Assembly (NCBI GenBank): GCA_963717505.1
Contig: OY970342.1
Location: forward strand, 1,728,001 to 1,792,000
Length of the DNA: 64,000 nt
Direction: 5' to 3'
Origin: Candidatus Eiseniibacteriota bacterium
GTDB taxonomy: Bacteria > Eisenbacteria > RBG-16-71-46
Positions 10,830-33,276 of this stretch are shown here, piece by piece. The position numbers were made by a program, and so were the translations under genes. A model generated the notes under the pieces. The model saw only the letters and a program-made list of their open reading frames with translations, was not told the origin of the DNA and searched no databases. The number at the start of each line of letters is the position of its first letter. Position 1 is the first letter of the stretch.

Positions 10830-11992
10830 TGGCCACCCATCACCCGATGCCCTCGCCCGGAAAGAGTGCCTGCGCGGTGCTTGCCGTCATCGGGTTGGCG
10901 CTGCAGTCCGGCTGCGGCGCCAAGTTCGAGCTGCCGACCGAGACCCCGCAGGGCTCGATCATTCCCGGCGATGGCACCTATCAGATGGAAGCCACCTGGA
11001 CCGGAATGATCGGCGTGCGCGACCTGCTGTACACGTCGGCCGGGCAGCTCTACGTGCTGCTCAACGACGGCAGGGGCAACGTCGACCTCGATGGCTACTC
11101 GCGCTTCAAGCCCGACCCGCAGCCGCTCGGCTATCCGTTCCGGACCCTGTTCAACCCGATCCAGGTGTGCGAGGGCAAGAGCTACCTGTTCGTGCTCGAT
11201 CAGGGCGACACCTGCGCAGCGCGCACCAACGAGGACACCGGCAAGTGCCAGGCCGACTCCGCATGGAACAACAACGTCGTGGATCTATCCAAGTACTGGC
11301 GGGTCCGTGAGTACACGCTGGTCGGCGCCGGCATGGGGGGCTTCGACACGGTGAGCACGTTCACCGACACGACGTTGGCCATGGTCGAAGGCATCGCGGC
11401 CGACGATGTCGGCAACGTTTACGTGGCGGGCCTTGCGATCGTCTATGTGCCCGACTTCCTCGACCCGCGCATCAAGACCCGCACGTTCCTGTGGCAGATC
11501 CGGCGCTATCAGCGTGGCCCCGGCGACGACAACATGCCGGGCGCCAACTGGCACCGCGACATGACCTGGGTGGTTGAACAGGGGGAGGGCACCGGGTTCG
11601 TCAACGGCCCGCGCGGCATCTACTGGCGGCGGGCACTCAACGGACCCGCGCTGTTCTCGACCGAGGTCGGGACCAATCGCGCGCAGAAGCTCTACGACAA
11701 CATCAGCAACACGGCCTATTTCCAGATCACTGAAGACGATCAGGCCCAACGGCTGGCCCGCCCGCTGGACGTGGCGGCCGACGAGCTGGGCGACGTCTAT
11801 GTTGCCGACACGGAAAACCAGCGCGTCCTCCGCTACGGGCCCTCCGGCGAGTTCTTGCAGCGGGTGGACGTCGAGCCCGATGTGCAAGGACAGCTGCTCG
11901 AGGTGCCGGTGACGGTTGCTGCCGACAGCCAGTACGTGTTCGTCGGCGACTTCGACCTGGGCAAGGTGATTCGCTACCGGAGGCGTTTGTGA
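10829..11992 (+). CDS. Lipoprotein with NHL-like beta-propeller repeats
   Basis: LQSGC lipobox; PLDVAADELGDVYVADTENQRVLRY and related NHL-like blades; TGATG coupling. Confidence 0.7.
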   Translation: MATHHPMPSPGKSACAVLAVIGLALQSGCGAKFELPTETPQGSIIPGDGTYQMEATWTGMIGVRDLLYTSAGQLYVLLNDGRGNVDLDGYSRFKPDPQPLGYPFRTLFNPIQVCEGKSYLFVLDQGDTCAARTNEDTGKCQADSAWNNNVVDLSKYWRVREYTLVGAGMGGFDTVSTFTDTTLAMVEGIAADDVGNVYVAGLAIVYVPDFLDPRIKTRTFLWQIRRYQRGPGDDNMPGANWHRDMTWVVEQGEGTGFVNGPRGIYWRRALNGPALFSTEVGTNRAQKLYDNISNTAYFQITEDDQAQRLARPLDVAADELGDVYVADTENQRVLRYGPSGEFLQRVDVEPDVQGQLLEVPVTVAADSQYVFVGDFDLGKVIRYRRRL

Positions 11993-14013
11993 CCCGAATC
12001 CACGCGGTCCTTGCCGTCGTCACCCTGCTGGGGCTGGCGACCTCTCCGGCGGCCGGCGACCCCGATCACCTCGCGAGACGCGGCGTCGAGCCGGCCGCGG
12101 CGCAGCAGGTGCAGGCGGATTCGATCCGATTCTCGCTGCGCGTGACCGACAACAACCTGGTCGGGATCACGATGACCAACTACGGATTCGTCGGCAACAA
12201 CTTCGTCTCGCGAGCACCCTCGCTCGAGTACCCGCTGGGCACGGCCTTCGAGCATCTGGTGCGCGGCGGGTTGTGGATCGGCGCCCGCGCGATCGACGAC
12301 GACGGCCCATTCACCGGAGTCTCGACCGCGGCGGAAGACGGCTCCCAGGGCAACGCCAGCCAGGGCGCCACCGAGTACACGCCGGCGGGGCTCGACATTC
12401 AGATTCGCTCGAGCCTGCCCAACGACCGCTACTTCAACCCCTCGTCGGTCAGCGAGCAGGACTTCGTCAGCGAATTCAGCGATCGGCCGTCGAAGCGCGT
12501 GACGGCGACCGAACGCCACCGCTCGATGAACATCCTCGTGCGTCAGGAGAATTACCAGTGGTCGTTCTCCGAGTACGCGCACACCATCATCTTCCACTAC
12601 GTGATCACCAATCTGGGGTTGCCGCTGCAGGACGCATGGGTCGGCTTCTATACCGAGTTCGCGAGCGGTCCCAAGAACCTGTACAGCGTCTGGCCGCCGA
12701 GCAGCGCCGGCAGCACGATCGGCAGCTGGTTCAACAAGAAGTGGATCGCCTACGACGACTCGCTGCGCCTGTCGCGCGAGCACTACTGCGCCGGCCAGCC
12801 GATTCCGCAGGCGTGCAATGCCGAGCTGGTGCCGCCGTGGATCGGCGTCAAGCTGTTGGGTGTGAGCCCCGGCGACGTCAAGGACACCACCGACAAGAAA
12901 GTCACGTTCGCAGCGTGGGACTACGATCCGGGCAGCGCGGCGCGCGACGAGGATCGCGAACGCTATGCGATCCTGAGCGCAGGAACCCTGCAAGCGGTGG
13001 AGGGCGACTCATTGCTTCCCGGCACCGGGGATCCGGTGCAGCTGATCGCGGTCGGTCCGTTCCCGTTGATCAACCCAGGCGACAGCATCTACGTGGACTT
13101 CGCGGTGGTGGGCGGCCTGACCGTCGAGCGCATCCAGGAGCACTCGCGCTTCGCGCAGCGGGCGTTCGACCGCGGCTACATCGTCCCGGTGCCGCCACCG
13201 TCGCCGCGCTTCCGAGCGGTAGCGCGCAACGGAACGCTCGACCTCTATTGGGACGACTCGGCCGAGAGCTTCTCCGACCCGACCAGTCGTCCGAACCCCG
13301 TCGACTTCGAGGGCTATCGCGTTTACGCGAGCGAAGATCGACAGAACCTGAATCGGATCGCACAGTTCGACAAGGCGACCCCACCCAACGACACCACCGG
13401 ATTCAACACCGGCCTCGACGTCGTGCGCCTGCCGGTGCCCGAGGTCATCGACGGCGTCGCCTACCAGTACAAGTACACGATCGGATCGCTCAAGAACGGC
13501 TTCAAGTACTACGCGGCGGTGACCTCGTACGACCTGGGCAATAGTGAAATCAGCTCGCTCGAAAGCGGCCTCACCCAGAACAAGACCATGGCGATCCCGG
13601 CGCCGGCCCCGGGCGAGCAGGCGGGCAGCGGCGACGTCGTCGTATTCCCGAATCCCTATCGCGTCGAGGCGCGGTGGGATCAGGGGGCACTGGTCCGCGA
13701 CCACTACCTGTGGTTCGCGAACCTGCCCGAGCGCTGCACGATCCGCATCTACACGCTCTCGGGCGACCTGGTGTTCGAGACCGAGTTCGACGGCGCCACC
13801 TACCAGGGGCAGGGCACGCGCGGCATCTACGACCCGAATCGCGAACTCGACGTGGATGCGCCGACCTTGTCGGGGCGCAGCTTCGGCTGGAACCTGATCA
13901 GCCAGGAGGGGCAGGCGGTGGCGACCGGTCTCTACCTGTACTCGGTCGAAGCGAACGGGGACCGGCACGTCGGCAAGTTCCTGATCGTCAAGTCGGACCG
14001 GGAGGACTTCTGA
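11989..14013 (+). CDS. Secreted protein with FN3-like region and C-terminal T9SS type-A/FlgD-like sorting domain
   Basis: Signal peptide; LEYPLG...GGLWIGA N-domain; PPPSP...LYWD...FEGYRVY...YYAAVTSYD; VVVFPNPY...IRIYTLSGDLV...WNL...VATGLYLY. Confidence 0.75.
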   Translation: MTRIHAVLAVVTLLGLATSPAAGDPDHLARRGVEPAAAQQVQADSIRFSLRVTDNNLVGITMTNYGFVGNNFVSRAPSLEYPLGTAFEHLVRGGLWIGARAIDDDGPFTGVSTAAEDGSQGNASQGATEYTPAGLDIQIRSSLPNDRYFNPSSVSEQDFVSEFSDRPSKRVTATERHRSMNILVRQENYQWSFSEYAHTIIFHYVITNLGLPLQDAWVGFYTEFASGPKNLYSVWPPSSAGSTIGSWFNKKWIAYDDSLRLSREHYCAGQPIPQACNAELVPPWIGVKLLGVSPGDVKDTTDKKVTFAAWDYDPGSAARDEDRERYAILSAGTLQAVEGDSLLPGTGDPVQLIAVGPFPLINPGDSIYVDFAVVGGLTVERIQEHSRFAQRAFDRGYIVPVPPPSPRFRAVARNGTLDLYWDDSAESFSDPTSRPNPVDFEGYRVYASEDRQNLNRIAQFDKATPPNDTTGFNTGLDVVRLPVPEVIDGVAYQYKYTIGSLKNGFKYYAAVTSYDLGNSEISSLESGLTQNKTMAIPAPAPGEQAGSGDVVVFPNPYRVEARWDQGALVRDHYLWFANLPERCTIRIYTLSGDLVFETEFDGATYQGQGTRGIYDPNRELDVDAPTLSGRSFGWNLISQEGQAVATGLYLYSVEANGDRHVGKFLIVKSDREDF

Positions 14014-14014
14014 A

Positions 14015-15541
14015 ATGACGCTCGGTCCCTCGCGTCGACGCAGTTCCGAGCGCTCAGGAACCCGGCCCTCGCGCCCGCTCCGCCCGGCCTTGCTGGTGCT
14101 GGTGCCCATGGCATTGCTCGCGATCGCCGCCTGCTCGCCCAAGGAGACCTTCGTCCCGCAGCTGCCGCCCGAGACGACGATCTTCATCCAAGGACCGGTG
14201 GACCCAGTGCACCATCACGTCCATCTCTACTGGTTTGGCAGTGATCCCGACGGCGACGTCATGTACTACGAAATCCGCCTGCTGAATCCGGACTCGCTCG
14301 CCGATTCGGCGTGGGTCGCGACGACTGCGGCGGACAGCGAATTCTTCGTCTATACGCCCGATGGCTACACCGATCCCGTTCTCGAGGTGCGTGCGGTCGA
14401 CGACGACGGGCTGCGCGATCCGACGCCGGCGCGGCAGCTATTCCAGTTCCGCAACGACGCCCCAGTTGTGTCCATCGGGCCCTACCCGGTGCTGAGCGAC
14501 ACGACCTATGCGTCGTTGACGCTGAGCTGGGTCGGGATCGATCCCGACGGCGACGCTGGACGTCTGACCTATCGCATTTGGCTGAGCGGCAACCAGGATG
14601 ACGCGCGGACCACCACCGAGCGAACCTTCACCATTCCCAGCGCGGATTTCTTCGAAGGTCCGGCGGCCGACAGCAGCGTGCGCCGCGTGTACGTCCAGGC
14701 GATCGACGAAGGTGGCATGGCCAGCGCTCCCGCGATTCGGCAGTGGGTGGTGCGACCGCTGACGATCGGCGGTGGCCCGCCGCGGCTCCTGATCATCGAC
14801 GATGTTCCCTCCAACCATGAATCCACCCAAGCGGTCAACTTCCGCACCGACACGCTGTGGGCGAATGGCGCGGTGCGCAACCTGCCCGCGGGCACCTGGA
14901 GCATTCTGCGTCTCCAGTTCACGCAACCGTTTCGCTCGCCAAAAGACGCCGAGCAGACCTTCGCCAACTATGACGCGGTGATCTGGTACCGCGGGACCAA
15001 CACGACCTTTTCGACGGTGCTGCGCGACGTCCAGGACGGCATCGGGGCGGCCCTCGACGCCGGAACCAGCGTCTTGATCGAAGGCGTGGCCCTGGCCGGC
15101 GTAAGCGCGGCCACCGGTCCGCTGCGGGCGGACTTCCTGGCGCGCTACTTCGCCACCGACCACCTGTACAAGTACTTCGATGTAACCCCGGGAGACTCCT
15201 CGATCGCCTGGAGTGTGCAGATCGGGGGCGTGTTCCGGTCGGGGCCGGTGATTCCGATCGACAGTCTGCGGATCCAGCAGAACCGGGGGGGGCTGCACGG
15301 ATTCGCCGTGCCGGACACCGGCCTGGTCTTGCTCTGGGCACGGACGGGGGCCCTGTCGCAGCCGAACACCTTCGACATGCCGGTGGCGATCGCGGTGCCT
15401 CAGGCATCCGGCGGCACTGCGGCTATGGTTTCGCTCCCGTTGGTCGAAACGTCACCGTCAGGGCCCGGAGGCACGTTCCCCCAGCGAGCAACAGCCTTCG
15501 TAAACAATGTTTTCGTCCACGTGCTGGACCTCGTCCCCTGA
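14015..15541 (+). CDS. Hypothetical lipoprotein (Ig/FN3-like N-terminal repeats)
   Basis: IAAC lipobox; PPETTI, WFGSDPDGDV and WVGIDPDGD repeats, VRAVDDDG..DPTPA; exact start uncertain. Confidence 0.65.
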   Translation: MTLGPSRRRSSERSGTRPSRPLRPALLVLVPMALLAIAACSPKETFVPQLPPETTIFIQGPVDPVHHHVHLYWFGSDPDGDVMYYEIRLLNPDSLADSAWVATTAADSEFFVYTPDGYTDPVLEVRAVDDDGLRDPTPARQLFQFRNDAPVVSIGPYPVLSDTTYASLTLSWVGIDPDGDAGRLTYRIWLSGNQDDARTTTERTFTIPSADFFEGPAADSSVRRVYVQAIDEGGMASAPAIRQWVVRPLTIGGGPPRLLIIDDVPSNHESTQAVNFRTDTLWANGAVRNLPAGTWSILRLQFTQPFRSPKDAEQTFANYDAVIWYRGTNTTFSTVLRDVQDGIGAALDAGTSVLIEGVALAGVSAATGPLRADFLARYFATDHLYKYFDVTPGDSSIAWSVQIGGVFRSGPVIPIDSLRIQQNRGGLHGFAVPDTGLVLLWARTGALSQPNTFDMPVAIAVPQASGGTAAMVSLPLVETSPSGPGGTFPQRATAFVNNVFVHVLDLVP

Positions 15542-15740
15542 CATGACGGTCTAAACTCGTTTGCTGCGGGGCTCCTGACGCTCTGCTAGCATCGTGGCGG
15601 TTCCGAAAACTCGAAGCCCGGTAACTCAAGCCGGGGCAGCTGGGAATGTCGGTCCACGCCCCCAAGGACCTCGCTCCGTTCCCACGCCCGCCGCGACGAA
15701 CCCGGATCGCCGAACCGAACACATCGGAAGGGAAACCATC

Positions 15741-17837
15741 ATGCGCAAGACCGCCACCACTCTGTTGGCCAGCGCACTGCTTGTCGTGTGCGCCTCCATG
15801 GCCGGAGCCGCCGACCGCTACCCGCCGGGGCCCGGCGGAGTGTGTACCGACACGCTCAGCATCTTCCAGTTCCAGAATCCCGCCGCCGCGCCCTGCCACC
15901 CGGCAGCTCTCGACACGGTGTGGGGCCTGCGCGGCGTCATCACCGGATTCGACGCACGCGCGAGCGCCTACGGGTTCTACATGCAGGACACCGGCTTCGC
16001 GAATTGGGCCGGCGTCGACGTGTTCACTGCGGCGACCAACTATCTCGGGCCGGTACCGGGGTCCCCCTCGGGTGGCAACCTGGCGATCGGCGACATCGTC
16101 GTCGTCTACGGAACCAAGCAGGAGTTCCAGGGCGAAACCGAGATCGAAGGGCCGGACGTCACCCAGTCGACCGACGACATCATCATCCGCAAGATCAGCT
16201 CGGGGAACCCCGTGCCCGCGCCGATTGCCGGCACGACCGCGACGTTCGGCCACCTGCCGACCAATCCGAACGGCGAGCAGTACGAAGGCATGTTGGTTTC
16301 GATCGGCGTGCCGATGCGCGTTGCGCGTACGTCGCTGACCGGCGGCCTGCCGTTCAACTCGTTCCTGCTGGTGAATCAGGCCGGTCCGGCCACCGATAGC
16401 GTCCACGTCGACGGCCAGACCCTCACCGCCGTCGCGGTCACACCGCCGGCCGTCGGCACTACGGTCGCCAGCGTGCGCGGCATCTGGCACCAGCGCACGA
16501 ACAACGTCAGCTCGTTCCGCATACAGCTGCGCGACGGCAACGACATCAACATCCAGACGCCGCCGAATCTGGCGGACGCCTACCCGGTCGCGGACAACGT
16601 CGTGCGCGTGGTGTTCGACCGCAACGTCACCGCGGCCAGCGCCGAGAACGAGGCCAACTACTCGCTGGCTTCGTTGGGTTCCGTCGATCTGGCGACCTCG
16701 GTGTCGGCGAGTGCCGTGAACCTGACCATCAGCAACGGTCTGGCGGACGGCGACCTCGAAGGCGTCACCGTGGTCGGAGTGGTCGCGGCCGCGAGCGGCC
16801 TGGCGATGACCACGCCGCAGAACCTGGGCTTCGTGAACGGCGTGGTCGAGCCGTCGGTCATCCAGGAAGCCGATCCCTCGGCGCTGGCCGGCAGCCCGTG
16901 CGAGGACCGTTCGCGCTATGCGGGACCGGGCACCTCGTTCGGATCTCTGCGCGTGTCGATCCGCGGCATCAGCGTGGCGCAGTACGGCGCCCTCTACTAC
17001 ATAGTCGGCGAGAGCGGCGGGCTTCGTAACGGCGTGTCGGTGTTCGGACCGCCGGCGCCGCTGACCCGCGGCAACCGCTACGTGGTGGTCGGGTTCGTCC
17101 AGGAGTTCGGTTCCGGCCCGCAGAACGGCCGCGAGACCGAAATCGTCAGCTCGCCGCTGGTGGTCAACGAAGGACCGGTCGCAGAGCCTGCGCCGCTGAT
17201 CGAGGAAGTCGGGGCGCTCCAGGACACGACCTGCGACGCCACTTCGCCCCAGCTCTTCAGCCACCTGACGACCGGCGAAGATTACGAATGCACGCTGGTG
17301 CGCGTGGCGCGGGGACGGATCACCGAGAACCGGCTGTCGGGCCAGAGCTTCTTCATGACCGACGAGTTCGGAACCTCGGGCGATACGATCCTGGTCGCGA
17401 ACAATGCCAGCAGCTACACGTTCGATCCGGATTCGCTGCAGATCGTCCAGGTCACCGGCACGCTGTCGTCGAACAGCGCGAGTTCGCGTCGATTCCGGAT
17501 CCAGCCGCGGACCAACGCGGACATCCGCAAGATCACCGGCGCCGGAGTCGATCCGATCGTGCGCACGGTTTCGTTCTCGTCATCGCCGAATCCGGCGCGC
17601 GTGCCGAGGATGGTGTTCGCGCTGCCACAGGAGGCCGAGGTCGATCTCGCGGTCTACGATCTGTTCGGCCGCCGGATCCAGACGCTGGCCAAGGGCAAGC
17701 TCGAAGCCGGCACGCACACGCGTGAGTGGAACGGCCTGGGCACCGGCGGCGGCGTTGCCGGCTCGGGCATCTACTTCTACAAGCTGATGGTCGGCAAGGA
17801 CTACGTGAAGACCATCCAGGGAGTGAAGCTCAACTAG
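15741..17837 (+). CDS. Secreted protein with two OB-fold-like modules (YhcR/ExeM type), Ig-like linker and FlgD/T9SS C-terminal domain
   Basis: Signal peptide MRKTATTLL...AGA; repeats GFYMQD...GDIVVVYGTKQEFQGETEI...EQYEGMLV and GNRYVVVGFVQEF...ETEI...EDYECTLV...FRIQPRTNADI; PNPAR...VYDLFGRRI...SGIYFYKL. Confidence 0.7.
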   Translation: MRKTATTLLASALLVVCASMAGAADRYPPGPGGVCTDTLSIFQFQNPAAAPCHPAALDTVWGLRGVITGFDARASAYGFYMQDTGFANWAGVDVFTAATNYLGPVPGSPSGGNLAIGDIVVVYGTKQEFQGETEIEGPDVTQSTDDIIIRKISSGNPVPAPIAGTTATFGHLPTNPNGEQYEGMLVSIGVPMRVARTSLTGGLPFNSFLLVNQAGPATDSVHVDGQTLTAVAVTPPAVGTTVASVRGIWHQRTNNVSSFRIQLRDGNDINIQTPPNLADAYPVADNVVRVVFDRNVTAASAENEANYSLASLGSVDLATSVSASAVNLTISNGLADGDLEGVTVVGVVAAASGLAMTTPQNLGFVNGVVEPSVIQEADPSALAGSPCEDRSRYAGPGTSFGSLRVSIRGISVAQYGALYYIVGESGGLRNGVSVFGPPAPLTRGNRYVVVGFVQEFGSGPQNGRETEIVSSPLVVNEGPVAEPAPLIEEVGALQDTTCDATSPQLFSHLTTGEDYECTLVRVARGRITENRLSGQSFFMTDEFGTSGDTILVANNASSYTFDPDSLQIVQVTGTLSSNSASSRRFRIQPRTNADIRKITGAGVDPIVRTVSFSSSPNPARVPRMVFALPQEAEVDLAVYDLFGRRIQTLAKGKLEAGTHTREWNGLGTGGGVAGSGIYFYKLMVGKDYVKTIQGVKLN

Positions 17838-24856: not shown

Positions 24857-26812
24857 CTAGCCCCGCTCGCCCTCGCCGGGGCGCAGCTCGTGGCGATCGA
24901 GCATGCGGTAGAGCGTGCTGCGCGCCACGCCCAGGGAGCGGGCGGCGCCGCTCAGATTGCCGCGCGAGTAGTTGAGCGCGCGCAACAGCGCGGCGCGCTC
25001 CGCAGACGAGCGCAGATCGCCGCGTTCGTGGGACTCGGTCGACTCCTCGATCGGCAGGTGCCAGAGCTCGATCCGCGGGGCGTCGCCGGCCAGAACCACG
25101 GCGTAGTTGAGCGCACTGCGCAATTCGCGCACGTTGCCGGGCCAGTCGTGCTTCTCGATCCACATCAGCGCATCGTGTGAAAGGGCTGGCGGCTGGCTCA
25201 GTCCGCGCGTTCGAGCGATGCCTTCGAGCAGGGCTTCGGCCAGCTCCCGGCGATCATCGCGGTCGCGCAGGGGAGGCAGCCGCAGCACGACGCCGCGCAT
25301 CCGGAAGTACAGGTCGCTGCGGAAGCGCCCCTGCTCGACCAGCGTCGGCAGCTCGCGACTGGTTGCCGCGATCAGGCGAACGTCGGCGCGACGCTCCGAG
25401 GCTTCGCCGACGCGATAGAACGTTCCGTCTTCGAGGAATCTCAACAACGCCGCCTGGGCGGGCGACGACATTTCGCCGACTTCGTCCAGGAACAGCGTTC
25501 CGCCGTCGGCTGTGGCGAGCTTCCCGGTGCGCCCGGTCGGGGCGGCGCCGGTGAACGAGCCGGGTCCATAGCCGAACAACTCGGACTCGAGCAGGGTGCC
25601 GGCGAGCGCTCCGCAGTTGACCGCGACGAACGGCGCGCGCCCGCGAGCGCTGCTGGCATGGATGGCGCGAGCGAAGATCTCCTTGCCCGCGCCGGTCTCG
25701 GCGAGCAGCAGGATCGGCAGATCGGTGCGCGCGAAGCGCGCGGCCTGGCTGCGTGCGGCGACCACCGCGGCATCGGTGCCGACGATGGTCGAGAAGGCTT
25801 CCGGTACCGAATCTCCGATGCGGGTTGCTCGCCGGCGATCGCTGCGTTGCCGCAGATGGACGATCGCCGCGAAGGGGTCGTCGGGCGGGCCGATGGGCTC
25901 GAGCTCGACGCGCAAACCGTCGGGCAGTGGGCGGCCCGCGTTGCCTCCGGTCGAACGGGATTGGACGAAACGGACGATCTCGGACGGCTGCAGTCCCGGA
26001 AGCAGGTTCCGGAAATGGGGGTTGATCCGGCGCACGTGCCCGGTCATTTCGACCAGGAGCGTCGCATGAGGGAGCCCCCCGAGCAATCGCTCCAACCCGA
26101 ACAGACCGCCCGGGTGCGCGGCGTCGTACGTGCGGGCCACGATCAGGGCCTCGATCGCCGCCGCCGTGGCGACTACGGAGGCGTGGATGAAGCTGTCCGC
26201 GGAGGCGATCGGCCCGGTGGCATCGAGGATGCCGACCAACCGTTGGCGGATGTCGCGCACGGGAGATGCATAGCAGGCCAGTCCGTGATTGCGTCGCTCG
26301 AAGTGCTCGACGCCGACCACCGACACCGGCGAATCCTCGGCCAACGTCGTTCCGATTCCGTTGGTGCCTCGGGCTTGCTCCGACCACACCGCGCCCTCGA
26401 CCACGCGGCTTTGCGTGACCATCGAACGAAACGGCTCGGAGATCCGCCGGGCGACGACCATGCCGCGGGCGTCGCAGAACAACCCGCAATAGCCGGCGCT
26501 CGCGATCGACGAAGCAAAGGCGTCGAAGGGCGCTCCAGTGGCGAGCAAGGGGGAGAATCGTTCGAGCGCCTCGGGGAGGGCGTCGAGGGCCATGCGTGGC
26601 TCGCCCGGATTGTCCGCCGACAGCCCGGTGTCCCGACACCTCTGCCACCGTCTGAGGACCAGGCTGCTTTCGATCTCATCCGGGGAACAGGCTCCGGATT
26701 GGAATCGTTCCCAGAGCTGGAGATCTGTGGCTGACTGCTGGATGGGGGTCACGTCATGAACGATATCCCCGGTTCCACAGGGCTTCAATAGCGAACCCAC
26801 CAGCGACGCCAT
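24857..26812 (-). CDS. Sigma54-dependent activator with N-terminal GAF domain (AcoR-like)
   Basis: WSEQARGTNGIGT GAF motif; ETGAGKE, SELFGY..GSFTGA, LFLDEVGEM, FRSDLYFR, WPGNVREL; Fis-type HTH AARSLGVARSTLYR. Confidence 0.92.
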   Translation of the reverse strand: MASLVGSLLKPCGTGDIVHDVTPIQQSATDLQLWERFQSGACSPDEIESSLVLRRWQRCRDTGLSADNPGEPRMALDALPEALERFSPLLATGAPFDAFASSIASAGYCGLFCDARGMVVARRISEPFRSMVTQSRVVEGAVWSEQARGTNGIGTTLAEDSPVSVVGVEHFERRNHGLACYASPVRDIRQRLVGILDATGPIASADSFIHASVVATAAAIEALIVARTYDAAHPGGLFGLERLLGGLPHATLLVEMTGHVRRINPHFRNLLPGLQPSEIVRFVQSRSTGGNAGRPLPDGLRVELEPIGPPDDPFAAIVHLRQRSDRRRATRIGDSVPEAFSTIVGTDAAVVAARSQAARFARTDLPILLLAETGAGKEIFARAIHASSARGRAPFVAVNCGALAGTLLESELFGYGPGSFTGAAPTGRTGKLATADGGTLFLDEVGEMSSPAQAALLRFLEDGTFYRVGEASERRADVRLIAATSRELPTLVEQGRFRSDLYFRMRGVVLRLPPLRDRDDRRELAEALLEGIARTRGLSQPPALSHDALMWIEKHDWPGNVRELRSALNYAVVLAGDAPRIELWHLPIEESTESHERGDLRSSAERAALLRALNYSRGNLSGAARSLGVARSTLYRMLDRHELRPGEGERG

Positions 26813-26906
26813 TTCAGTGACGATTGTCGCGCTGGGCGGGTCAGCGCGTATCGTTTCGCTACACTCAACTGGCCATTCCAGGCTCCAAGACAGCCATTTC
26901 CATGGT

Positions 26907-26922
26907 CGGCCCGGCTCTTGCT
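26907..26922 (+). promoter_or_regulatory. Sigma54 -24/-12 promoter
   Basis: CGGCCCGGCTCTTGCT: GG-N10-GC with TTGCT at -12; divergent from a sigma54 activator; imperfect palindrome CGTATCGTTTCGCTACA at 26847-26863 as possible UAS. Confidence 0.7.
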
Positions 26923-26932
26923 AGAAGATATT

Positions 26933-27020
26933 GAACAGAATCTCTCTCTGTTTAGGGAGGTGCTGTTTGCGGCCCCTTGGGTGCGGCCCCCAAGCCCGCG
27001 GCGGTGCCTCCTACTTTTTT
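26933..27020 (+). ncRNA. Candidate ~88-nt structured RNA / attenuator
   Basis: Starts at predicted sigma54 +1; hairpin AACAGA/TCTGTT, long imperfect hairpin 26953-27013, then T6 at 27015-27020. Confidence 0.4.
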
Positions 27021-27070
27021 GCGGGGACAAGCCCCCGTCGCCCGCGAGCTGGTTCGTCTAGAATCGCGTC

Positions 27071-27328
27071 ATGCCTCGATCCCCCGATGCAGTGAAGCGC
27101 GAGCTGCGGCAGCACATCGTCGGCCGCTACCTGCCGGGCGAAGACCCCGAACGGCTCACCGAAGACCTCGAGCTCCAGACCTCCGGTGTCCTGAACTCGG
27201 TCAACACCCTGGAACTGGTTCAGCACCTCGAGACCACCTACGGGATCTCCATGACCGCGCACGAGATCGCGACCCGGCTCTCCACGGTGCGAGCCATCGC
27301 TGCTCTGGTCGTCGAAAAGGCCACCTGA
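27071..27328 (+). CDS. Stand-alone peptidyl/acyl carrier protein (PltL-like)
   Basis: 85 aa; GVLNSVN phosphopantetheine Ser motif (NS rather than DS); TAGAAT 6 nt upstream suggests a leaderless start. Confidence 0.85.
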   Translation: MPRSPDAVKRELRQHIVGRYLPGEDPERLTEDLELQTSGVLNSVNTLELVQHLETTYGISMTAHEIATRLSTVRAIAALVVEKAT

Positions 27329-27334
27329 TCGACG

Positions 27335-28891
27335 ATGCTGGTCGACGGGTTCGAGCACGCCGCGAAGTCCAATCCCGGGCAGCCGGCGATCGAGGACCGC
27401 GAGGGCCGGCGACTCACCTATCGGTCGCTCGATGCGGCGGCATCGCGGATCGCGCATCGGCTTCGGATCTCGGGTGTCGCGCCCGGTGACCGTGTCGCGA
27501 TCCATCACCCCAAGTCGATCGAATCGGTCGCCGCGATTCTCGGCGTGCTCAAGGCGCGGGCCGCGTACGTTCCGCTCGACGCGAGCGCTCCGATCGAGCG
27601 CAGCCGTCACATTCTCGGCGACTGCGGGGCGAAGGTGCTGTGCACGAACCCGGACGGGGCGGCCCGGTTCGGCCCGGACGCAGGCTGCGCGATGCTCGCT
27701 CTGTCACCGATACCGGCGGACGAGGCGGATTCGTCGTGGCTCCAGGGCGCCGACCCCTCATGGCGCGCAGCCGAGCCGGTGCGCCCCGAGGATCTGAGCT
27801 ACATCCTGTACACCTCCGGGTCGACGGGCGTACCCAAGGGAGTCATGCACACCCATGCCAGCGCCGAGAGTTTCGTGAGCTGGGCGTTTCGCGCGGTCGA
27901 GCCGCGCGCCGAGGATCGCTTCAGCAGCCACGCACCGTTCCACTTCGATCTGTCCATTTTCGACCTCTACGTCTGCTTTCGTTCCGGTGGCACGCTGGTC
28001 CTGGTCGACGAGTCGCTCGGCGCTCGGCCGCTGGATCTGGCGGCATTCATCGCCGAGCGATCGATCTCGATCTGGTACTCGGTGCCTTCGATCCTGGCCC
28101 TGCTCGCGGAGCACGGAAAGCTCGCGCAACACCGTTTCGATCGCCTGCGGATCATCGTCTTCGCCGGCGAGGTGTTCCCGATTCGGCCGCTCCGGCTGCT
28201 GCAGAAGCTGCTTCCGGGGAGGACCTACTTCAATTTCTACGGCCCGACCGAGACCAACGTGTGCACCGCCTACCGCCTGCCCGGTCCGATTCCCGAGTCG
28301 CAGACGACGCCGGTGCCGATCGGGCCGGCGTGCGACAACGTCCGGGCGATGGTCCTCGATGAGGCACAGTGTCCGGTCGAGCGTGGCGGGGAGGGACTGC
28401 TCTACATCCACGCCTCGGGCCCGACCATGCTCGGCTACTGGCCGCCGAGCCCCGACGGGGAGTCGAAAGCGTTCCATCGCGCGCCTTCGGGCGAACGTTG
28501 GTATTGCACCGGCGATGTGGTCCGTGAGGATCCGGACGGCAACTATGTCTACGTCGGGCGCCGGGACCGAATGGTGAAGCGGCGGGGCTACCGCATCGAG
28601 CTGGGCGAAATCGAGAACGCCCTGAGCCAGCACGACGAAGTGCGCGAGGTGGCGGCGGTCACTGCGGACACGACCGGCCAGGGCCTCGAGATCGTCGCGT
28701 TCCTGGTTCCTGCGAGCCCGGCTGATCGCATGTCGATCATCGCGCTCAAGCAGTACTGCATGAGCCGGCTGCCCGGCTACATGTGCCCCGATCGATTCGA
28801 GTTCCTCCCAGTACTGCCGCGCACCGCCAACGACAAGGTCGACCTGCAGGCACTCGCGCGCAGCGCGCAGCGGAAGCCGGCCGGCGAATGA
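27335..28891 (+). CDS. Stand-alone adenylation domain, probable L-proline-[carrier protein] ligase (PltF/RedM-like)
   Basis: YILYTSGSTGVPKG, FHFDLS, WYSVP, FAGE, YGPTETNVC, YCTGD, GRRDRMVKRRGYRIELGEIE, NDKVD; specificity residues read by eye D-L-F-Y-V-A-F-V-C-K. Confidence 0.85.
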   Translation: MLVDGFEHAAKSNPGQPAIEDREGRRLTYRSLDAAASRIAHRLRISGVAPGDRVAIHHPKSIESVAAILGVLKARAAYVPLDASAPIERSRHILGDCGAKVLCTNPDGAARFGPDAGCAMLALSPIPADEADSSWLQGADPSWRAAEPVRPEDLSYILYTSGSTGVPKGVMHTHASAESFVSWAFRAVEPRAEDRFSSHAPFHFDLSIFDLYVCFRSGGTLVLVDESLGARPLDLAAFIAERSISIWYSVPSILALLAEHGKLAQHRFDRLRIIVFAGEVFPIRPLRLLQKLLPGRTYFNFYGPTETNVCTAYRLPGPIPESQTTPVPIGPACDNVRAMVLDEAQCPVERGGEGLLYIHASGPTMLGYWPPSPDGESKAFHRAPSGERWYCTGDVVREDPDGNYVYVGRRDRMVKRRGYRIELGEIENALSQHDEVREVAAVTADTTGQGLEIVAFLVPASPADRMSIIALKQYCMSRLPGYMCPDRFEFLPVLPRTANDKVDLQALARSAQRKPAGE

Positions 28892-30216
28892 TGGTGGCGA
28901 CCGCCATCGAGGCGAAGCCCAGCCGCGCCTTCGGCGCCTCCGACGTGCTGCAGAAGCTGGTCCTGATCGCCGAGCTGTTCCTGCTTTGCGTGGTGCTCGA
29001 GGAGACCCGAATCATCTCGCCGGCCTTCACCCGGATGTTCTGGGTCGTCGCCGCCGGCGTCCTGCTCAACGATTTCGTTCCGGCCCGGGTGCGGCCCGCC
29101 TTCTTCCTGGTCCTGTCTCTGGTCTGCACCGCCACCGTGCTCCAGGTGGTGCCGACTCTGGTTCTGGTCGGCGTCGGCCTGGCGTTGATTGGGGTCTGCC
29201 AGCTGCCGCTGCGGCTCGGCTACCGCATCGCGATCCTGGCGGCCATGGCAGCGGTGGTCGCCGTCTATCGCACCGGGGCTTCCTGGCTGCCCCAGCCATC
29301 CATGGACATCCTGGTGATCATTCCGGTGCTCGCGTCGATGTTCATGTTCCGCCTGTCGATCTACCTCTACGACAAGGAGAACACCAAGTCGCGGCTGCCC
29401 TGGACCCAGACGCTGAACTACTTCTTCATGCTGCCGAATGTCTGCTTCCTCCTGTTCCCGGTGGTCGACTACACGACGTTCCTCCAGTCCTACCGCGATC
29501 GCGAGCGCTGGCGGGTCCAGCAGATCGGCGTCCGCTGGATCCTGGTCGGCCTGGTTCAGCTGCTGCTCCTGCGTCTGGTCGAACTGCACGTGGTTCGCGA
29601 TCCCGACGAGCTGGTCACGCGCCTCGACCACTTCCTCTACGTGATCTCGGCGTACCTCATGTACCTGCGCGTGTCCGGCCAGTTCCACATGATCGTCGGC
29701 ATCCTGCATCTGTTCGGCTACGAGCTGCCGCGGACCAACAACAAGTATTTCCTGGCGTCGAGCTTCACCGACCTGTGGCGGCGCATCAACATTTACTGGA
29801 TGGAGTACATGCGCAAGATGATCTACTACCCGGTGCTGCTGCGATTCCGCGGCTGGGGCCCGGTGCGCGCTTCGGTCGCGGCCACGGTGTGCGTGTTCCT
29901 GGCCACCATCGTCCTGCACGCGTACCAGTACTTCTGGTTGTCGGGCGATTTCCGCGTGTCGGTCCGCGACCTGTTGTTCTGGGGTCTCCTGTGTGCGCTG
30001 GTGCTGGTCGACATGTATCGTGAACGCCGGATGCTGGAACGCCAGCGCGCGCGCGGCACGGGACCGCGCGCCGGTGGCTGGCGGTCGGTCCTGGGGGCGC
30101 TGCCGGGCACGGCCGCCACCCTGGTCGTGATGACGATCCTGTGGTCCCTGTGGTCGAGCGAGTCGATCAGCCTGGGGCGCTGGCTCGAGATCCTCGGGAA
30201 GGTCGTGGTGCCGTGA
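28888..30216 (+). CDS. MBOAT family membrane-bound acyltransferase (DltB/AlgI-like)
   Basis: Multiple hydrophobic segments; LFGYELP...YFLASSFTDLWRRINIYW..YM...IYYP; candidate catalytic His in IVLHAYQ. Confidence 0.82.
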   Translation: MMVATAIEAKPSRAFGASDVLQKLVLIAELFLLCVVLEETRIISPAFTRMFWVVAAGVLLNDFVPARVRPAFFLVLSLVCTATVLQVVPTLVLVGVGLALIGVCQLPLRLGYRIAILAAMAAVVAVYRTGASWLPQPSMDILVIIPVLASMFMFRLSIYLYDKENTKSRLPWTQTLNYFFMLPNVCFLLFPVVDYTTFLQSYRDRERWRVQQIGVRWILVGLVQLLLLRLVELHVVRDPDELVTRLDHFLYVISAYLMYLRVSGQFHMIVGILHLFGYELPRTNNKYFLASSFTDLWRRINIYWMEYMRKMIYYPVLLRFRGWGPVRASVAATVCVFLATIVLHAYQYFWLSGDFRVSVRDLLFWGLLCALVLVDMYRERRMLERQRARGTGPRAGGWRSVLGALPGTAATLVVMTILWSLWSSESISLGRWLEILGKVVVP

Positions 30217-31385
30217 AGGTCGCGTGGATCGCAGTGAATGTCGCGCTGCTGGCGGTGCTCGGGGTGTTCTTCAACCGGGACGTGTACTCGCGGCTGGGGC
30301 CGGCGGCGACCCTTTACGTCGATCGCCTGCGCAGCGACGCCCTGATCAAGGAGGAGAGCCGTTCCGAGCTGTCGACCTACTACGAGGACTTGCTGTTCGA
30401 GGGCGGCAGCATCAAGGGGTATCTCGCGAGGCGCTACGAGGGATACAACTATTCGCTCGACGAGTGGGATCCGTTCGACGGCGACGACTCGCCGCACTGG
30501 CAGCCGACCGACGACCTGCGGGTCCTCGGTCCCAAGCCGTCGCAGGTCGTGATGCTCGACCGGATCGCGCACACCTTCAACTCCATCGGACTGCGGGACC
30601 GCGAGTACCCGCCGGTTCCCGCCGACGACACCTACCGGATCGTGATGCTCGGCGCGTCGAACCTGATGGCGCACGGCATTCCCGACGGCAAGGGTTTCGA
30701 GGCCCAGATCGAAGACTCGCTCAACGCCGAGCCGGTCGGTCCGTGGAAGGCGTTCGAGATCCTCAATTTCGGCTACGACTCGTACACCGAGGTCAAGAAC
30801 CTGGTCCAGATCGACCAGGGCGATGTGTTCCCGCTGCGTCCCCGGCTGGTGGTCATCATCACGCACTCGATCCACGACTTCTGGGAGTGGGATTTCATCG
30901 ACCTGGTCTCGCGCGAGCAGTACGCGCAGATCGGATATCCCTACCTGATCGACCTGGGCAAGAAGCTTCGGTCCGAGCACCGTCGCCAGTTGCGCGATTC
31001 GGAGCGCGACGACGTCGTCCGCTGGGCCTACGGAGAGCTCCGCGCGCGCTGCGCGGCGGCATCGGTGAAATGCGTGGCGGTCGGCATTCCGTTGCCGAAC
31101 AGCCTTTCGGACCCCAAGCGGCTGGAGGAGCGCATGAATCTGATCCGCTCGACCGGCATGCCGGTGATCTCGCTGCACCGGAGCCTCGAGGGGCGTGATC
31201 TGGTCGAGCTGCAGCGCGAGCCGTGGGACGATCTCCACTTGAACCTGGAGGGGCACCGGATCGTCGCCCACGACCTCTATCGCGCGCTGCTCGAACACGA
31301 CGCCGAGTTCGGGCTCGGACTCAGGGTTCGGCCCTCGGAGCCGCTCGTGACCGCCGGATCCGGTGGCAGGGCCGTGCGGCCATGA
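30213..31385 (+). CDS. Membrane-anchored SGNH/GDSL-fold protein (DltD/AlgJ-like partner)
   Basis: N-terminal TM; NSIGLRDREY, RIVMLGASN (block I Ser), EILNFG, DDLHLNLEGH (DxxH); GTGA coupling to the MBOAT. Confidence 0.75.
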   Translation: MKVAWIAVNVALLAVLGVFFNRDVYSRLGPAATLYVDRLRSDALIKEESRSELSTYYEDLLFEGGSIKGYLARRYEGYNYSLDEWDPFDGDDSPHWQPTDDLRVLGPKPSQVVMLDRIAHTFNSIGLRDREYPPVPADDTYRIVMLGASNLMAHGIPDGKGFEAQIEDSLNAEPVGPWKAFEILNFGYDSYTEVKNLVQIDQGDVFPLRPRLVVIITHSIHDFWEWDFIDLVSREQYAQIGYPYLIDLGKKLRSEHRRQLRDSERDDVVRWAYGELRARCAAASVKCVAVGIPLPNSLSDPKRLEERMNLIRSTGMPVISLHRSLEGRDLVELQREPWDDLHLNLEGHRIVAHDLYRALLEHDAEFGLGLRVRPSEPLVTAGSGGRAVRP

Positions 31386-32542
31386 CGCTCGACTCGACGG
31401 CGGTTCCCCTCACTCCGGCGCAGAAGGAACTGCGCGACTCGGCCGCCGCGTTCGCCCGCAAGCATCTCGGCCCCGGGGCCGGCCACGCCGACGAGGCCGC
31501 GGCCTTCACGCGGGATGCCTGGCGGAAGTGCGCCGAGTACGGCGTCCAGGGCCTGCCGTTCCCCGAGGCCTATGGCGGCCAGGGGCAGACGGTCGAAGGC
31601 ACGATCGCGGTCATGGAAGGCCTCGGCTACGGGTGCCGGGATCATGGCCTCCTGTTCTCGATCAACGCCCACATGTGGGCGTGCGCGATGCCGATCCTCC
31701 AGTTCGGCACCCCCGATCAGAAGCAGCGCTACCTGCCGGACCTGTGCAACGGCAAGAAGATCGCGGCCAACGCAGCGAGCGAACCCGGCTCGGGATCGGA
31801 CGTGTTCAGCATGCGGACGCGGGCGGTGCGCGACGGCGACCACTACGTGCTGAATGGCTCCAAGATGTTCGTGACCAACGCGCCGGTCGCCGACCTGTTC
31901 GTGCTGTACGCGACGGTCGATCCGGAATACGGCGCCGCCGGCATCTGCTGCTTCGTGATCGAGAAGGGCACTCCCGGTCTCCAGGTCAGCCGCCCGATCG
32001 GCAAGATGGGACTCAAGAGCTCGCCGATGGCCGAAGTTCACCTCGAAGCGTGCCGGGTGCCCGCGGGCAATCTCCTGGGCCTCGAGGGCCGGGGCGTGAC
32101 CGTGTTCCACGGGTCCATGGTCTGGGAGCGCGCATGCATCCTTGCCACTTGCGTGGGCTCGATGGCGCGCCAGCTCGAGGAGTGTGTGGCCTATGCGCGC
32201 GAGCGATCGCAGTTCGGCAACCCGATCGGGAAGTTCCAGGCGGTCGCCCATCGGATCGTGGACATGAAGATCCGGCTCGACCTCTCGCAGATGCTGGTCT
32301 ACCGGGTCGGGCGGCTGATGCAGGCGGGGGAGTCGGCCGACATGGAATCCGCGATCGCCAAGCTGTACATCTCGGAGGCCCACGTCGCTTCGTCGATGGA
32401 TGCGGTGCGCATCCACGGCGGGTACGGCTACACCACGGAATATCCTTTCGAGCGCCAGCTACGCGACGCCGTGGGCGGAACCCTCTATTCCGGGACCAGC
32501 GACATCCAGCGCAACCTGATCGCCCGCAGCTTGGGTCTGTAA
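31382..32542 (+). CDS. Acyl-CoA dehydrogenase family, probable prolyl-carrier-protein dehydrogenase (PltE/RedW/AnaB-like)
   Basis: LGYGCRDHGLLFSINAHMWAC, SEPGSGSD, LNGSKMFVTNAPVAD, WERAC, RSQFG, IHGGYGY, LYSGTSDIQ. Confidence 0.85.
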   Translation: MTLDSTAVPLTPAQKELRDSAAAFARKHLGPGAGHADEAAAFTRDAWRKCAEYGVQGLPFPEAYGGQGQTVEGTIAVMEGLGYGCRDHGLLFSINAHMWACAMPILQFGTPDQKQRYLPDLCNGKKIAANAASEPGSGSDVFSMRTRAVRDGDHYVLNGSKMFVTNAPVADLFVLYATVDPEYGAAGICCFVIEKGTPGLQVSRPIGKMGLKSSPMAEVHLEACRVPAGNLLGLEGRGVTVFHGSMVWERACILATCVGSMARQLEECVAYARERSQFGNPIGKFQAVAHRIVDMKIRLDLSQMLVYRVGRLMQAGESADMESAIAKLYISEAHVASSMDAVRIHGGYGYTTEYPFERQLRDAVGGTLYSGTSDIQRNLIARSLGL

Positions 32543-32583
32543 GGGCCCTCACCCGCTGTGAGGACCCCACAGCCCCGTTTCCG

Positions 32584-33276
32584 CTACCGGCGCGAGGAGC
32601 CCGGTTGCGGCACGATCCTCAGGTACGGTCTTGGCGCGTTCCAGCCGTCGGGATAGATCTTCCGGGCTTCGTCGTCCGACACCGACCCGGCGATGATCAC
32701 GTCCTCACCCTGCTTCCAATTGACCGGAGTCGCAACCCGGTGCGCCGCGGTCAACTGCATCGAGTCGATCACCCGCAGGACCTCGGCGAAGTTGCGTCCG
32801 GTGGTCATCGGATAGACCAGGATCAGCTTGATTTTCTTGTCCGGTCCGATCACGAACACGTTGCGCACCGTCTGATTGTCGGCGGCGGTCCGCCCGTCGC
32901 AGGTGCCCTCGAGATCCGCGGGCAGCATGCCGTAGAGCTTGGAGACTTCGAGGTTCGGGTCCCCGATCATCGGGAAGTTCGGCGCCTGTCCCTGGGTCTC
33001 CGCGATGTCATCCGACCACTTCTTGTGCGATGAGACCGGGTCGACGCTCAGCCCGACGATCTTGGTGCGGCGGCGGTCGAACTCGGGCTTGAGCTTGGCC
33101 ATGGCCCCGAGCTCAGTGGTGCACACCGGCGTGAAGTCTTTGGGGTGGGAGAACAAGACCGCCCACGAGTCCCCGATCCAGTCGTGGAAGCGGATGCGGC
33201 CTTCGGTGGTCTCGGCTTCGAAATCCGGCGCCACGCTGCCGATCTGCAGCGCCGTGCTGCCCACTTGAACGCTCAC
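32584..33276 (-). CDS. 1-Cys peroxiredoxin (Prx6 type)
   Basis: FSHPKDFTPVCTTE, YPMTTGRNFAE, VATPVNW; GGAGG SD before GTG 33276. Confidence 0.93.
   Translation of the reverse strand: MSVQVGSTALQIGSVAPDFEAETTEGRIRFHDWIGDSWAVLFSHPKDFTPVCTTELGAMAKLKPEFDRRRTKIVGLSVDPVSSHKKWSDDIAETQGQAPNFPMIGDPNLEVSKLYGMLPADLEGTCDGRTAADNQTVRNVFVIGPDKKIKLILVYPMTTGRNFAEVLRVIDSMQLTAAHRVATPVNWKQGEDVIIAGSVSDDEARKIYPDGWNAPRPYLRIVPQPGSSRR

Follow-up and report, generated by a model that had tools for sequence, protein, structure and literature searches.

A five-gene cassette of Candidatus Eiseniibacteriota that pairs a prolyl-carrier trio with an MBOAT and an SGNH protein: a candidate system for carrier-dependent acylation of the cell envelope

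Introduction

Dlt, the system for D-alanylation of teichoic acids, is a drug target in Gram-positive pathogens. According to the accessible text of a 2025 article, its acyl group travels from the carrier protein DltC to the MBOAT protein DltB, is then held as an acyl-tyrosine ester on the FXYXXF motif of DltX, and reaches the polymer via the serine of DltD (PMC12148441). In that text, Dlt figures as the only characterized MBOAT/SGNH pathway that uses a carrier protein, the others doing without one, and PatA, whose acyl-enzyme intermediate at Tyr445 is reported to have been trapped, is described as having FXYXXF at its C terminus, after two extra helices (PMC12148441). Here, we analyze a cassette of five coupled genes from a Candidatus Eiseniibacteriota bacterium that code for a carrier protein, an adenylation (A) enzyme, an MBOAT, an SGNH protein, and an enzyme of the acyl-CoA dehydrogenase (ACAD) family. 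The cassette fills positions 27071-32542 (plus strand) of the window, by which we mean the whole stretch of 64,000 nucleotides analyzed (contig OY970342.1, positions 1,728,001 to 1,792,000; the contig is abbreviated C1 below).

A chemical precedent for part of what we propose exists in aminocoumarin biosynthesis, in which CouN1/CouN7 and CloN1/CloN7 transfer a carrier-bound pyrrolyl-2-carboxyl group via a serine acyl-enzyme to a sugar hydroxyl. These enzymes are soluble, cytoplasmic alpha/beta hydrolases with a small-molecule substrate, no membrane passage, and no homology to MBOAT or SGNH proteins. A preliminary description of the locus had suggested that an oxidized prolyl unit is exported, in the manner of Dlt, onto a glycan, lipid, or protein. 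Our analysis supports this interpretation, in which the oxidation state of the acyl group, its passage through the MBOAT, and the nature of the acceptor are inferences. With a probability of roughly 0.6, the five genes form one module in which a Dlt-like, carrier-dependent acyl transfer by MBOAT and SGNH proteins is fed by a proline-to-pyrrole trio that replaces DltA and DltC.

Results

The adenylation enzyme and its carrier protein

The A enzyme matched both Pfam AMP-binding domains and scored above the cut-off of TIGR01733 (356.4 bits; cut-off, 317.4). When the whole protein was compared with the PDB, the L-proline ligase PltF (6o6e_B) was the top single domain with 341.9 bits, followed at about 240 bits by the next one; the 415 bits obtained for LgrA are the sum of two domains. 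With the specificity core as the query, PltF scored 132 bits, a second proline ligase (7thn_B) 89, and DltA 78. The ten specificity positions, which we placed by what we take to be the GrsA numbering relative to the core motifs, read DLFYVAFVCK in the window, DLLYLALVCK in PltF, and DLFYIAWVCK in 7thn_B. Hence, the window code equals that of PltF at 7 of 10 positions, with three differences that are all hydrophobic substitutions, and departs from the DltA code at six positions. The comparison was extended to 38 cassette homologues and to natural-product trios. PltF's own code was present in 26 of the 39 cassette enzymes; the others had DLLYFALVCK (four), DLLYNALVCK (three), DLFYLALVCK (two), DLLYHALVCK (two), DLHYLALVCK (one), and DLFYVAFVCK (the window enzyme only). 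The trios of Mycetohabitans, Streptomyces microflavus, and Brasilonema, which lie beside genes for nonribosomal peptide synthetases (NRPS), polyketide synthases (PKS), or ketosynthase III (KSIII), have DLFYLALVCK or DLLYLALVCK.

These data point toward a PltF-like, probably proline-specific ligase and agree with the preliminary description in that the enzyme is not of the alanine/serine/glycine or fatty-acid type (342 bits for PltF versus about 240; PltF code in 26 of 39). By the core score and the code relative to DltA, D-alanine would not be the group transferred. The whole enzyme reached 258.5 bits with the DltA equivalog model and thereby missed its cut-off of 559.85.

The carrier passed the cut-off of Pfam PP-binding (27.9 bits; cut-off, 20.8), and its Ser43 is invariant in 28 cassette carriers. 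Two type II prolyl carriers, Bmp1 (6cxt_A, E 0.0025) and PltL (E 0.0099), were among its matches in the PDB. The preliminary description had ascribed the same asparagine-serine motif to PltL. This was correct for PltL itself, which has GILNSMN where the window carrier has GVLNSVN in the PDB alignment, LNSxN being common to both. It does not hold as a trait of the cassette, since at least 90% of the members have LDS and the window carrier has N42 where they have D. Judged from these alignments, the LNS motif is peculiar to the window carrier and PltL and untypical of the cassette family. The other two motifs quoted at the time, DLFYVAFVCK in the A enzyme and LGYGCRDHGLLFSINAH in the dehydrogenase, were found as well. 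The top NCBIfam match of the carrier was ACP_for_OlsHI with 72.4 bits (under the cut-off of 130), other acyl carrier protein models reaching about 20 bits; neither acyl carrier proteins nor MBOATs come up in the accessible text of the OlsH/OlsI paper (PMC12493201). The DltC equivalog was missed with 17.7 bits (cut-off, 68). A predicted complex of carrier and MBOAT, computed without controls, scored 0.15 versus a mark of 0.32, a value that counts neither for nor against their interaction.

The dehydrogenase

All three Pfam ACAD domains were matched by the fifth protein. Its top three PDB matches were AnaB (424.5 bits), Bmp3 (6cxt_B; 333.6 bits), and PigA (318.2 bits), with ordinary ACADs at 286 bits or less. 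As given in the accessible part of a review, 6cxt_B is the prolyl-carrier dehydrogenase Bmp3 in complex with the carrier Bmp1 (PMC8857579). Alignments revealed that LGYGC.D.GL...NAH and WE(R/K) are common to the window enzyme and AnaB, Bmp3, and PigA. The best NCBIfam models were PigA (451.5 bits; cut-off, 500) and RedW (440.6 bits; cut-off, 650), and the next family followed at 315 bits.

A maximum likelihood tree (quick search, LG+G4, support by the Shimodaira-Hasegawa-like approximate likelihood ratio test [SH-aLRT] only) was calculated from 45 of 46 rows, one having been dropped because it had too few filled columns; annotated plasmid loci stood in for the sequences of AnaB, Bmp3, PigA, PltE, and RedW themselves. 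Two generic ACADs of the window's own genome formed the outgroup (SH-aLRT 99). The enzymes of Mycetohabitans and S. microflavus fell inside the small clade of the window enzyme (SH-aLRT 99), and a PigA orthologue and the Brasilonema enzyme were sister to a 26-member cassette clade (SH-aLRT 100). Because cassette and natural-product dehydrogenases interleave in this way, the cassette enzymes are ordinary members of the prolyl-carrier dehydrogenase family. Both the PDB ranking and the position of the genome's own ACADs thus keep the enzyme apart from catabolic ACADs, as the preliminary description had presumed.

AnaB stops after a two-electron oxidation. Since AnaB is the nearest solved enzyme, the product of the window enzyme may be other than pyrrole: the flavoenzyme could stop at one two-electron oxidation, and a dehydroprolyl (pyrroline-carboxyl) ester would be exported by the same architecture. 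The wide margin of AnaB over Bmp3 and PigA and the missed curated PigA and RedW cut-offs speak for this alternative, which we nevertheless regard as unlikely: the window enzyme shares a clade (SH-aLRT 99) with enzymes of trios whose neighbors are NRPS/PKS or KSIII genes, a setting typical of pyrrole starters, and its top profiles, PigA and RedW, are pyrrole-forming. By its tree neighbors and best profiles, the enzyme would more probably form pyrrole than an AnaB-like product.

The MBOAT and SGNH proteins

The AlphaFold2 model of the MBOAT had a mean predicted local distance difference test value (pLDDT) of 85. Foldseek placed two DltB structures, 8jem_B and 6bug_C, on top (template modeling score normalized to the target, 0.63-0.66), followed by HHAT and PORCN. 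H267, N301 (in WRRINIYW), and H344 are invariant in an alignment of 22 sequences, and we take them to be equivalent to the His residues of DltB. In the protein atlas, the nearest clusters are named "hypothetical protein," and MBOAT clusters come after them.

The SGNH protein matched Pfam Lipase_GDSL_2 weakly and under the cut-off (18 bits), and G147/S149, N185, D339, and H342 are invariant in an alignment of 25 sequences. Its AlphaFold2 model (pLDDT 81) has an N-terminal helix and a stretch of low confidence (residues 47-66, below 50). Within this flexible segment, which follows the membrane anchor, lies the invariant Y56-Y57-E58, corresponding to GYYE in relatives.

In 64 of 72 loci from other species that have both parts, the MBOAT and the SGNH protein are fused in one uninterrupted reading frame. 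An exhaustive search (E ≤ 1e-30) yielded 579 MBOAT clusters, counted at 50% identity, and 121 of the best 150 of them have representatives of at least 780 amino acids. The window MBOAT ends separately with ...LGKVVVP. The split form is no sequencing error, since it recurs in the closest relatives of the window (441-442 amino acids, 63-82% identity). The MBOAT part of the fused members ends with the conserved LWSLWS, after which two helices lead to a segment with the invariant G-Y-Y-E-x-L; every one of the 64 fused homologues has G[YF]YE, as do 110 of the 121 long representatives.

In a Foldseek search, the SGNH model matched GDSL esterases, thioesterases, and acetylxylan esterases best; PatB came in at ranks 49-50. 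Because the model is nearer to esterases and other hydrolases than to PatB, hydrolysis has to be considered in place of transfer. The SGNH protein would then hydrolyze the intermediate and free a proline-derived acid, for example pyrrole-2-carboxylate, on the outside, perhaps as a signal or metabolite, and leave the polymer unmodified. In line with such a release, no gene for acceptor synthesis is conserved beside the cassette, and the module is patchy and accessory (see below). We consider it improbable on three grounds: the rank in a Foldseek search cannot tell transferases from hydrolases, a tethered or fused SGNH protein would be a costly route to a free acid for which a cytoplasmic thioesterase would suffice, and all characterized bacterial MBOAT/SGNH pairs covered by the accessible text of the article on Dlt acylate an envelope polymer (PMC12148441).

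Conservation and linkage of the five genes

A pattern scan with one genome per species gave at least 583 relatives of the MBOAT, of which 79 loci, all from other species, were kept. Many of them are short contigs of metagenome-assembled genomes (MAGs). Presence of a gene was scored by tblastn with the five proteins of the window and bit-score thresholds of our own choice (carrier, 45; A enzyme, 250; MBOAT, 200; SGNH, 45; ACAD, 250). All five genes were present at 39 of the 79 loci. Where the MBOAT was well flanked (5.5 kb or more to either side), the five genes were found together at 28 of 40 loci, one or two were missing at nine, and MBOAT and SGNH stood without the others at three. With C, A, M, S, and D for carrier, A enzyme, MBOAT, SGNH protein, and dehydrogenase, the nine incomplete loci were CMSD (three), CMS (three), CAMD (two), and CAMS (one); some of the "missing" genes are under the score thresholds because they are fragmented. 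The five-gene arrangement exceeds chance. The order MBOAT-SGNH-carrier-A-ACAD is the commonest (27 of 39 full loci), the order of the window recurs at two others, and several orders exist.

The full loci belong to at least 10 named phyla (Pseudomonadota, Acidobacteriota, Gemmatimonadota, Chloroflexota, Myxococcota, Planctomycetota, Rhodothermota, Hydrogenedentota, Binatota, and Krumholzibacteriota). The hosts are mostly diderm and environmental; a megaplasmid of Microvirga holds the five-gene set as well. Cultured hosts include Aromatoleum aromaticum EbN1, A. anaerobium, Rhodoferax ferrireducens, and Mesorhizobium ventifaucium. RefSeq names the products in Aromatoleum and Rhodoferax "acyl-CoA dehydrogenase family protein," "amino acid adenylation domain-containing protein," "acyl carrier protein," and "hypothetical protein." The expectation of the preliminary description that MBOAT and SGNH proteins, usually fused, stay beside the trio in other genomes was thus borne out.

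A sixth conserved gene, such as one for DltX, a phosphopantetheinyl transferase, or a glycosyltransferase, was sought by all-against-all clustering of open reading frames (ORFs) from the 39 full loci and the window; no further family occurred in more than 4 of the 40 sources among ORFs of at least 50 amino acids, a length limit that leaves DltX-like microproteins below 50 amino acids outside the search. The larger clusters consisted of the five cassette genes themselves or of their shadow frames.

Two further arrangements were seen during the survey. One Hydrogenedentota MAG and one Rhodothermales MAG have two MBOAT-SGNH copies per genome; in the former, a trio lies beside one copy and none beside the other, and one trio may serve two transferases. 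Plasmid NZ_CP049039.1 of Pseudohalocynthiibacter aestuariivivens has genes for a HupE/UreJ protein, a carrier, an ACAD, a methyltransferase, and an A enzyme, which adjoin yjbF/yjbH and polysaccharide-export genes. Its A-domain code, DIFFIGSMCK, is unlike the proline codes, and the module may be another carrier-dependent system for the tailoring of surface polymers.

On a tree of the MBOATs (80 rows, quick search, SH-aLRT support only), those without a nearby trio form no clade of their own. Those nine loci whose dehydrogenases make up the ACAD clade of the window are scattered over this tree and required 9 changes, the same as with shuffled labels.

The preliminary description had found no PKS or NRPS acceptor in the window. 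Indeed, a search of the whole genome (4.16 Mb) for condensation and ketoacyl-synthase domains gave no match inside C1:1728001-1792000, all matches being outside, and none of the 20 flanking ORFs scanned (9687-47674) codes for a PKS or NRPS. By the ketosynthase domain search, the genome is without a PKS. Its sole NRPS system lies at C1:2096000-2110000, 340 kb from the cassette, and consists of an A-T protein (647 amino acids) and a C-A-T protein (1113 amino acids) together with two alpha/beta hydrolases and a group-1 glycosyltransferase. This distant system leaves room for the view that trio and MBOAT-SGNH pair are independent neighbors, in which case the trio would supply an NRPS or PKS encoded far away and the MBOAT would use acetyl-CoA like PatA and AlgI, a view to which the discordant ACAD and MBOAT phylogenies and the 3 of 40 well-flanked loci without a trio gene near MBOAT-SGNH also lend something. 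We hold it to be very unlikely. The distant NRPS comes with a loading protein (A-T) of its own, and there is no PKS in the genome; translational coupling joins the genes in the window, and the complete set recurs, in several orders and many phyla, at 28 of the 40 well-flanked loci; MBOATs lacking a trio are not gathered in a clade apart; and the C-terminal FXYXXF of the MBOATs that use acetyl-CoA is absent.

Locus layout and genomic surroundings

The features of the locus are given in Table 1. The tightly coupled five-gene set of the preliminary description is real and has exactly the span given there. Carrier and A genes are separated by 6 nt, and 4-nt overlaps join A and MBOAT (ATGA), MBOAT and SGNH (GTGA), and SGNH and ACAD (ATGA). 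An ORF at 30224-31198 was rejected as the SGNH gene; it is an Arg/Gly/Pro-rich shadow frame, and the true frame ends at 31385.

Table 1. Features of the cassette and its 5' leader, in window positions
Feature	Positions	Strand	Description
Carrier protein	27071-27328	+	85 amino acids, stand-alone; phosphopantetheine-attachment Ser43 in GVLNSVN
Adenylation (A) enzyme	27335-28891	+	518 amino acids, stand-alone, PltF-like; probably proline-specific; code DLFYVAFVCK
MBOAT-fold polytopic membrane acyltransferase (predicted)	28888-30216	+	442 amino acids; structure closest to DltB
SGNH-fold protein	30213-31385	+	390 amino acids; N-terminal membrane anchor, flexible segment, catalytic domain
Flavin adenine dinucleotide-dependent ACAD-family enzyme	31382-32542	+	386 amino acids; prolyl-carrier-protein dehydrogenase subfamily; LGYGCRDHGLLFSINAH and WER motif
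Stem-loop followed by a U-run	26955-27021	+	5' leader, GC-rich, about 50 nt before the carrier start

The RNA fold of 26955-27040 has a free energy of -46.6 kcal/mol (z -2.61), which was equaled by 2 of 200 shuffles. Nothing credible was found in Rfam for the region 26700-27200. On the plus strand, there is no gene upstream that the stem-loop could terminate; a role as leader element or attenuator for the operon is conceivable. A scan of 26700-32800 for sigma-70 promoters and terminators gave nothing above shuffles.

A gene for a sigma-54-dependent activator (24857-26812, minus strand) is divergent from the cassette. Sigma-54 promoters have a -24/-12 pattern that can be written loosely as TGG-N9-TGC. 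Throughout the window, 38 matches were observed and 33.7 expected, and none falls in the shared intergenic region (26813-27070); sigma-54 control of the cassette was therefore dropped, a regulatory link between activator and cassette being unsupported as long as this region has no -24/-12-like pattern.

The other flanking ORFs are mostly of the housekeeping type or unassigned in function; besides the divergent activator, they include genes for lipoate synthesis, a 2-oxoacid dehydrogenase E2, NadA, a peroxiredoxin, and PEGA-domain proteins. Farther upstream, three consecutive large ORFs (11734-17837, plus strand; 759, 518, and 752 amino acids) are without a Pfam match except for a C-terminal FlgD_ig domain in the third, and they are preceded by a gene for a PorV/FadL-like outer-membrane protein (9687-10829).

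Discussion

In sum, our data are consistent with a cassette that combines carrier-bound proline chemistry with acyl transfer across the membrane, and the following path of the acyl group can be envisaged. The PltF-like ligase would adenylate L-proline and load it onto the small carrier, as its specificity code and nearest relatives suggest. The flavoenzyme would then oxidize the prolyl-S-carrier; by family membership, the likeliest product is pyrrolyl-2-carboxyl-S-carrier, formed by removal of four electrons, and an AnaB-like two-electron product (dehydroprolyl) is the alternative. In a third and speculative step, the DltB-like MBOAT might receive the acyl group from the carrier on the cytoplasmic side and convey it outward, where it might form an acyl-tyrosine ester on the GYYE segment between membrane anchor and SGNH domain. 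Since the canonical acyl-shuttle motif FXYXXF is absent, a GYYE shuttle is a conjecture. Finally, by analogy to DltD and PatB, Ser149 of the SGNH protein would receive the acyl group and esterify an extracytoplasmic acceptor that is not encoded by the cassette. Because there is no conserved sixth gene and the hosts belong to many phyla, a ubiquitous acceptor of the envelope (peptidoglycan, a common glycan, or a membrane lipid) is a reasonable guess.

Taken as a whole, this would amount to a new modification of the envelope: a pyrrole-2-carboxyl or dehydroprolyl ester on a widespread acceptor, made by a second carrier-dependent MBOAT-SGNH pathway that has recruited natural-product enzymes, employs a GYYE shuttle, and has spread horizontally through at least 10 phyla. 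We put this forward tentatively, at odds a little below even.

Several observations weigh against the proposal. The window MBOAT has no Pfam match, reaches only 20.6 bits with the DltB model TIGR04091 (cut-off, 375), and sits on a long branch (0.97). FXYXXF is missing not only at the C terminus: the linkers of the 121 long representatives had no match, and 56 of the 64 fused proteins had none anywhere. The esterase-like SGNH model, the resemblance of the dehydrogenase to AnaB, and its scores under the curated cut-offs, all discussed above, belong here as well. Furthermore, the 40 nearest relatives searched, among them 26 genomes with a completeness of at least 90%, gave no match to an MBOAT query (E ≤ 1e-30). 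Being patchy, the cassette is an accessory trait, and nothing requires the acceptor to be universal. Lastly, since the ACAD and MBOAT trees are discordant, trio and transferase must have been recombined or exchanged during evolution.

The nesting of natural-product trios in cassette clades, together with the discordant trees, suggests that trios have been exchanged repeatedly between secondary-metabolite clusters and the envelope cassette. The copy in the window is a divergent member of the family, as seen from its split MBOAT and SGNH proteins, the LNS motif of its carrier, its unique specificity code, and the long MBOAT branch.

The combination was found neither in targeted full-text searches of the literature, which did not extend to subscription journals and supplements, nor among the curated names of NCBIfam, and the accessible text of the article on Dlt does not describe it (PMC12148441). 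As the parts come from known families and their combination was not found in print, the cassette would represent a second carrier-protein-dependent MBOAT/SGNH system, here for a proline-derived acyl group. If this is true, an aromatic heterocycle or cyclic imine would be added to the chemistry of the envelope, in which acetyl and D-alanyl groups are known, and the proline-to-pyrrole trio, usually a marker of secondary metabolism, would also serve the tailoring of the cell surface. The cassette would be a natural case in which to test whether an acyl-tyrosine shuttle can work with another motif, and a function would be assigned to about 580 protein clusters (50% identity) that are now "hypothetical protein" in RefSeq. 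The cultured hosts, non-pathogenic ones among them, make the cassette directly testable.

How, then, does the cassette compare with described systems? As in Dlt, a stand-alone A enzyme would load a small carrier, the fold of the MBOAT is nearest to DltB, and a membrane-anchored SGNH protein has a Ser-Asp-His triad. Unlike in Dlt, the ligase has a proline code, a flavin dehydrogenase is present as an extra, fifth component, MBOAT and SGNH proteins are usually one polypeptide, the hosts are mostly diderm environmental bacteria, and the cut-offs of the DltB and DltA equivalogs are missed by far. FXYXXF is lacking, and no DltX was found among ORFs of at least 50 amino acids, shorter ones not being part of the search; the invariant GYYE of the cassette holds a topological place comparable to that of FXYXXF.

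With the type II NRPS trios (PltF/PltL/PltE, Bmp4/Bmp1/Bmp3, PigI/PigG/PigA, and RedM/RedO/RedW) and with AnaC/AnaD/AnaB, which supply the solved or profile relatives of its proteins, the cassette shares the PltF code in most members, the dehydrogenase motifs, and an interleaved dehydrogenase tree. It differs from them in that there is no adjacent PKS, NRPS, halogenase, or KSIII partner, either in the flanks within the window or as a conserved neighbor at 40 loci; the conserved neighbor is MBOAT-SGNH instead. Like PatA/PatB and AlgI/AlgJ, the cassette joins an MBOAT to an SGNH protein outside the cytoplasm, and as in PatA, the fused forms have two extra transmembrane helices after the MBOAT core, which bring an invariant tyrosine-containing segment to the outer face. 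In contrast to PatA and AlgI, which use acetyl-CoA without a carrier and end with FXYXXF, the cassette has a carrier, a ligase, and a dehydrogenase of its own, and its GYYExL segment lies upstream of the SGNH domain.

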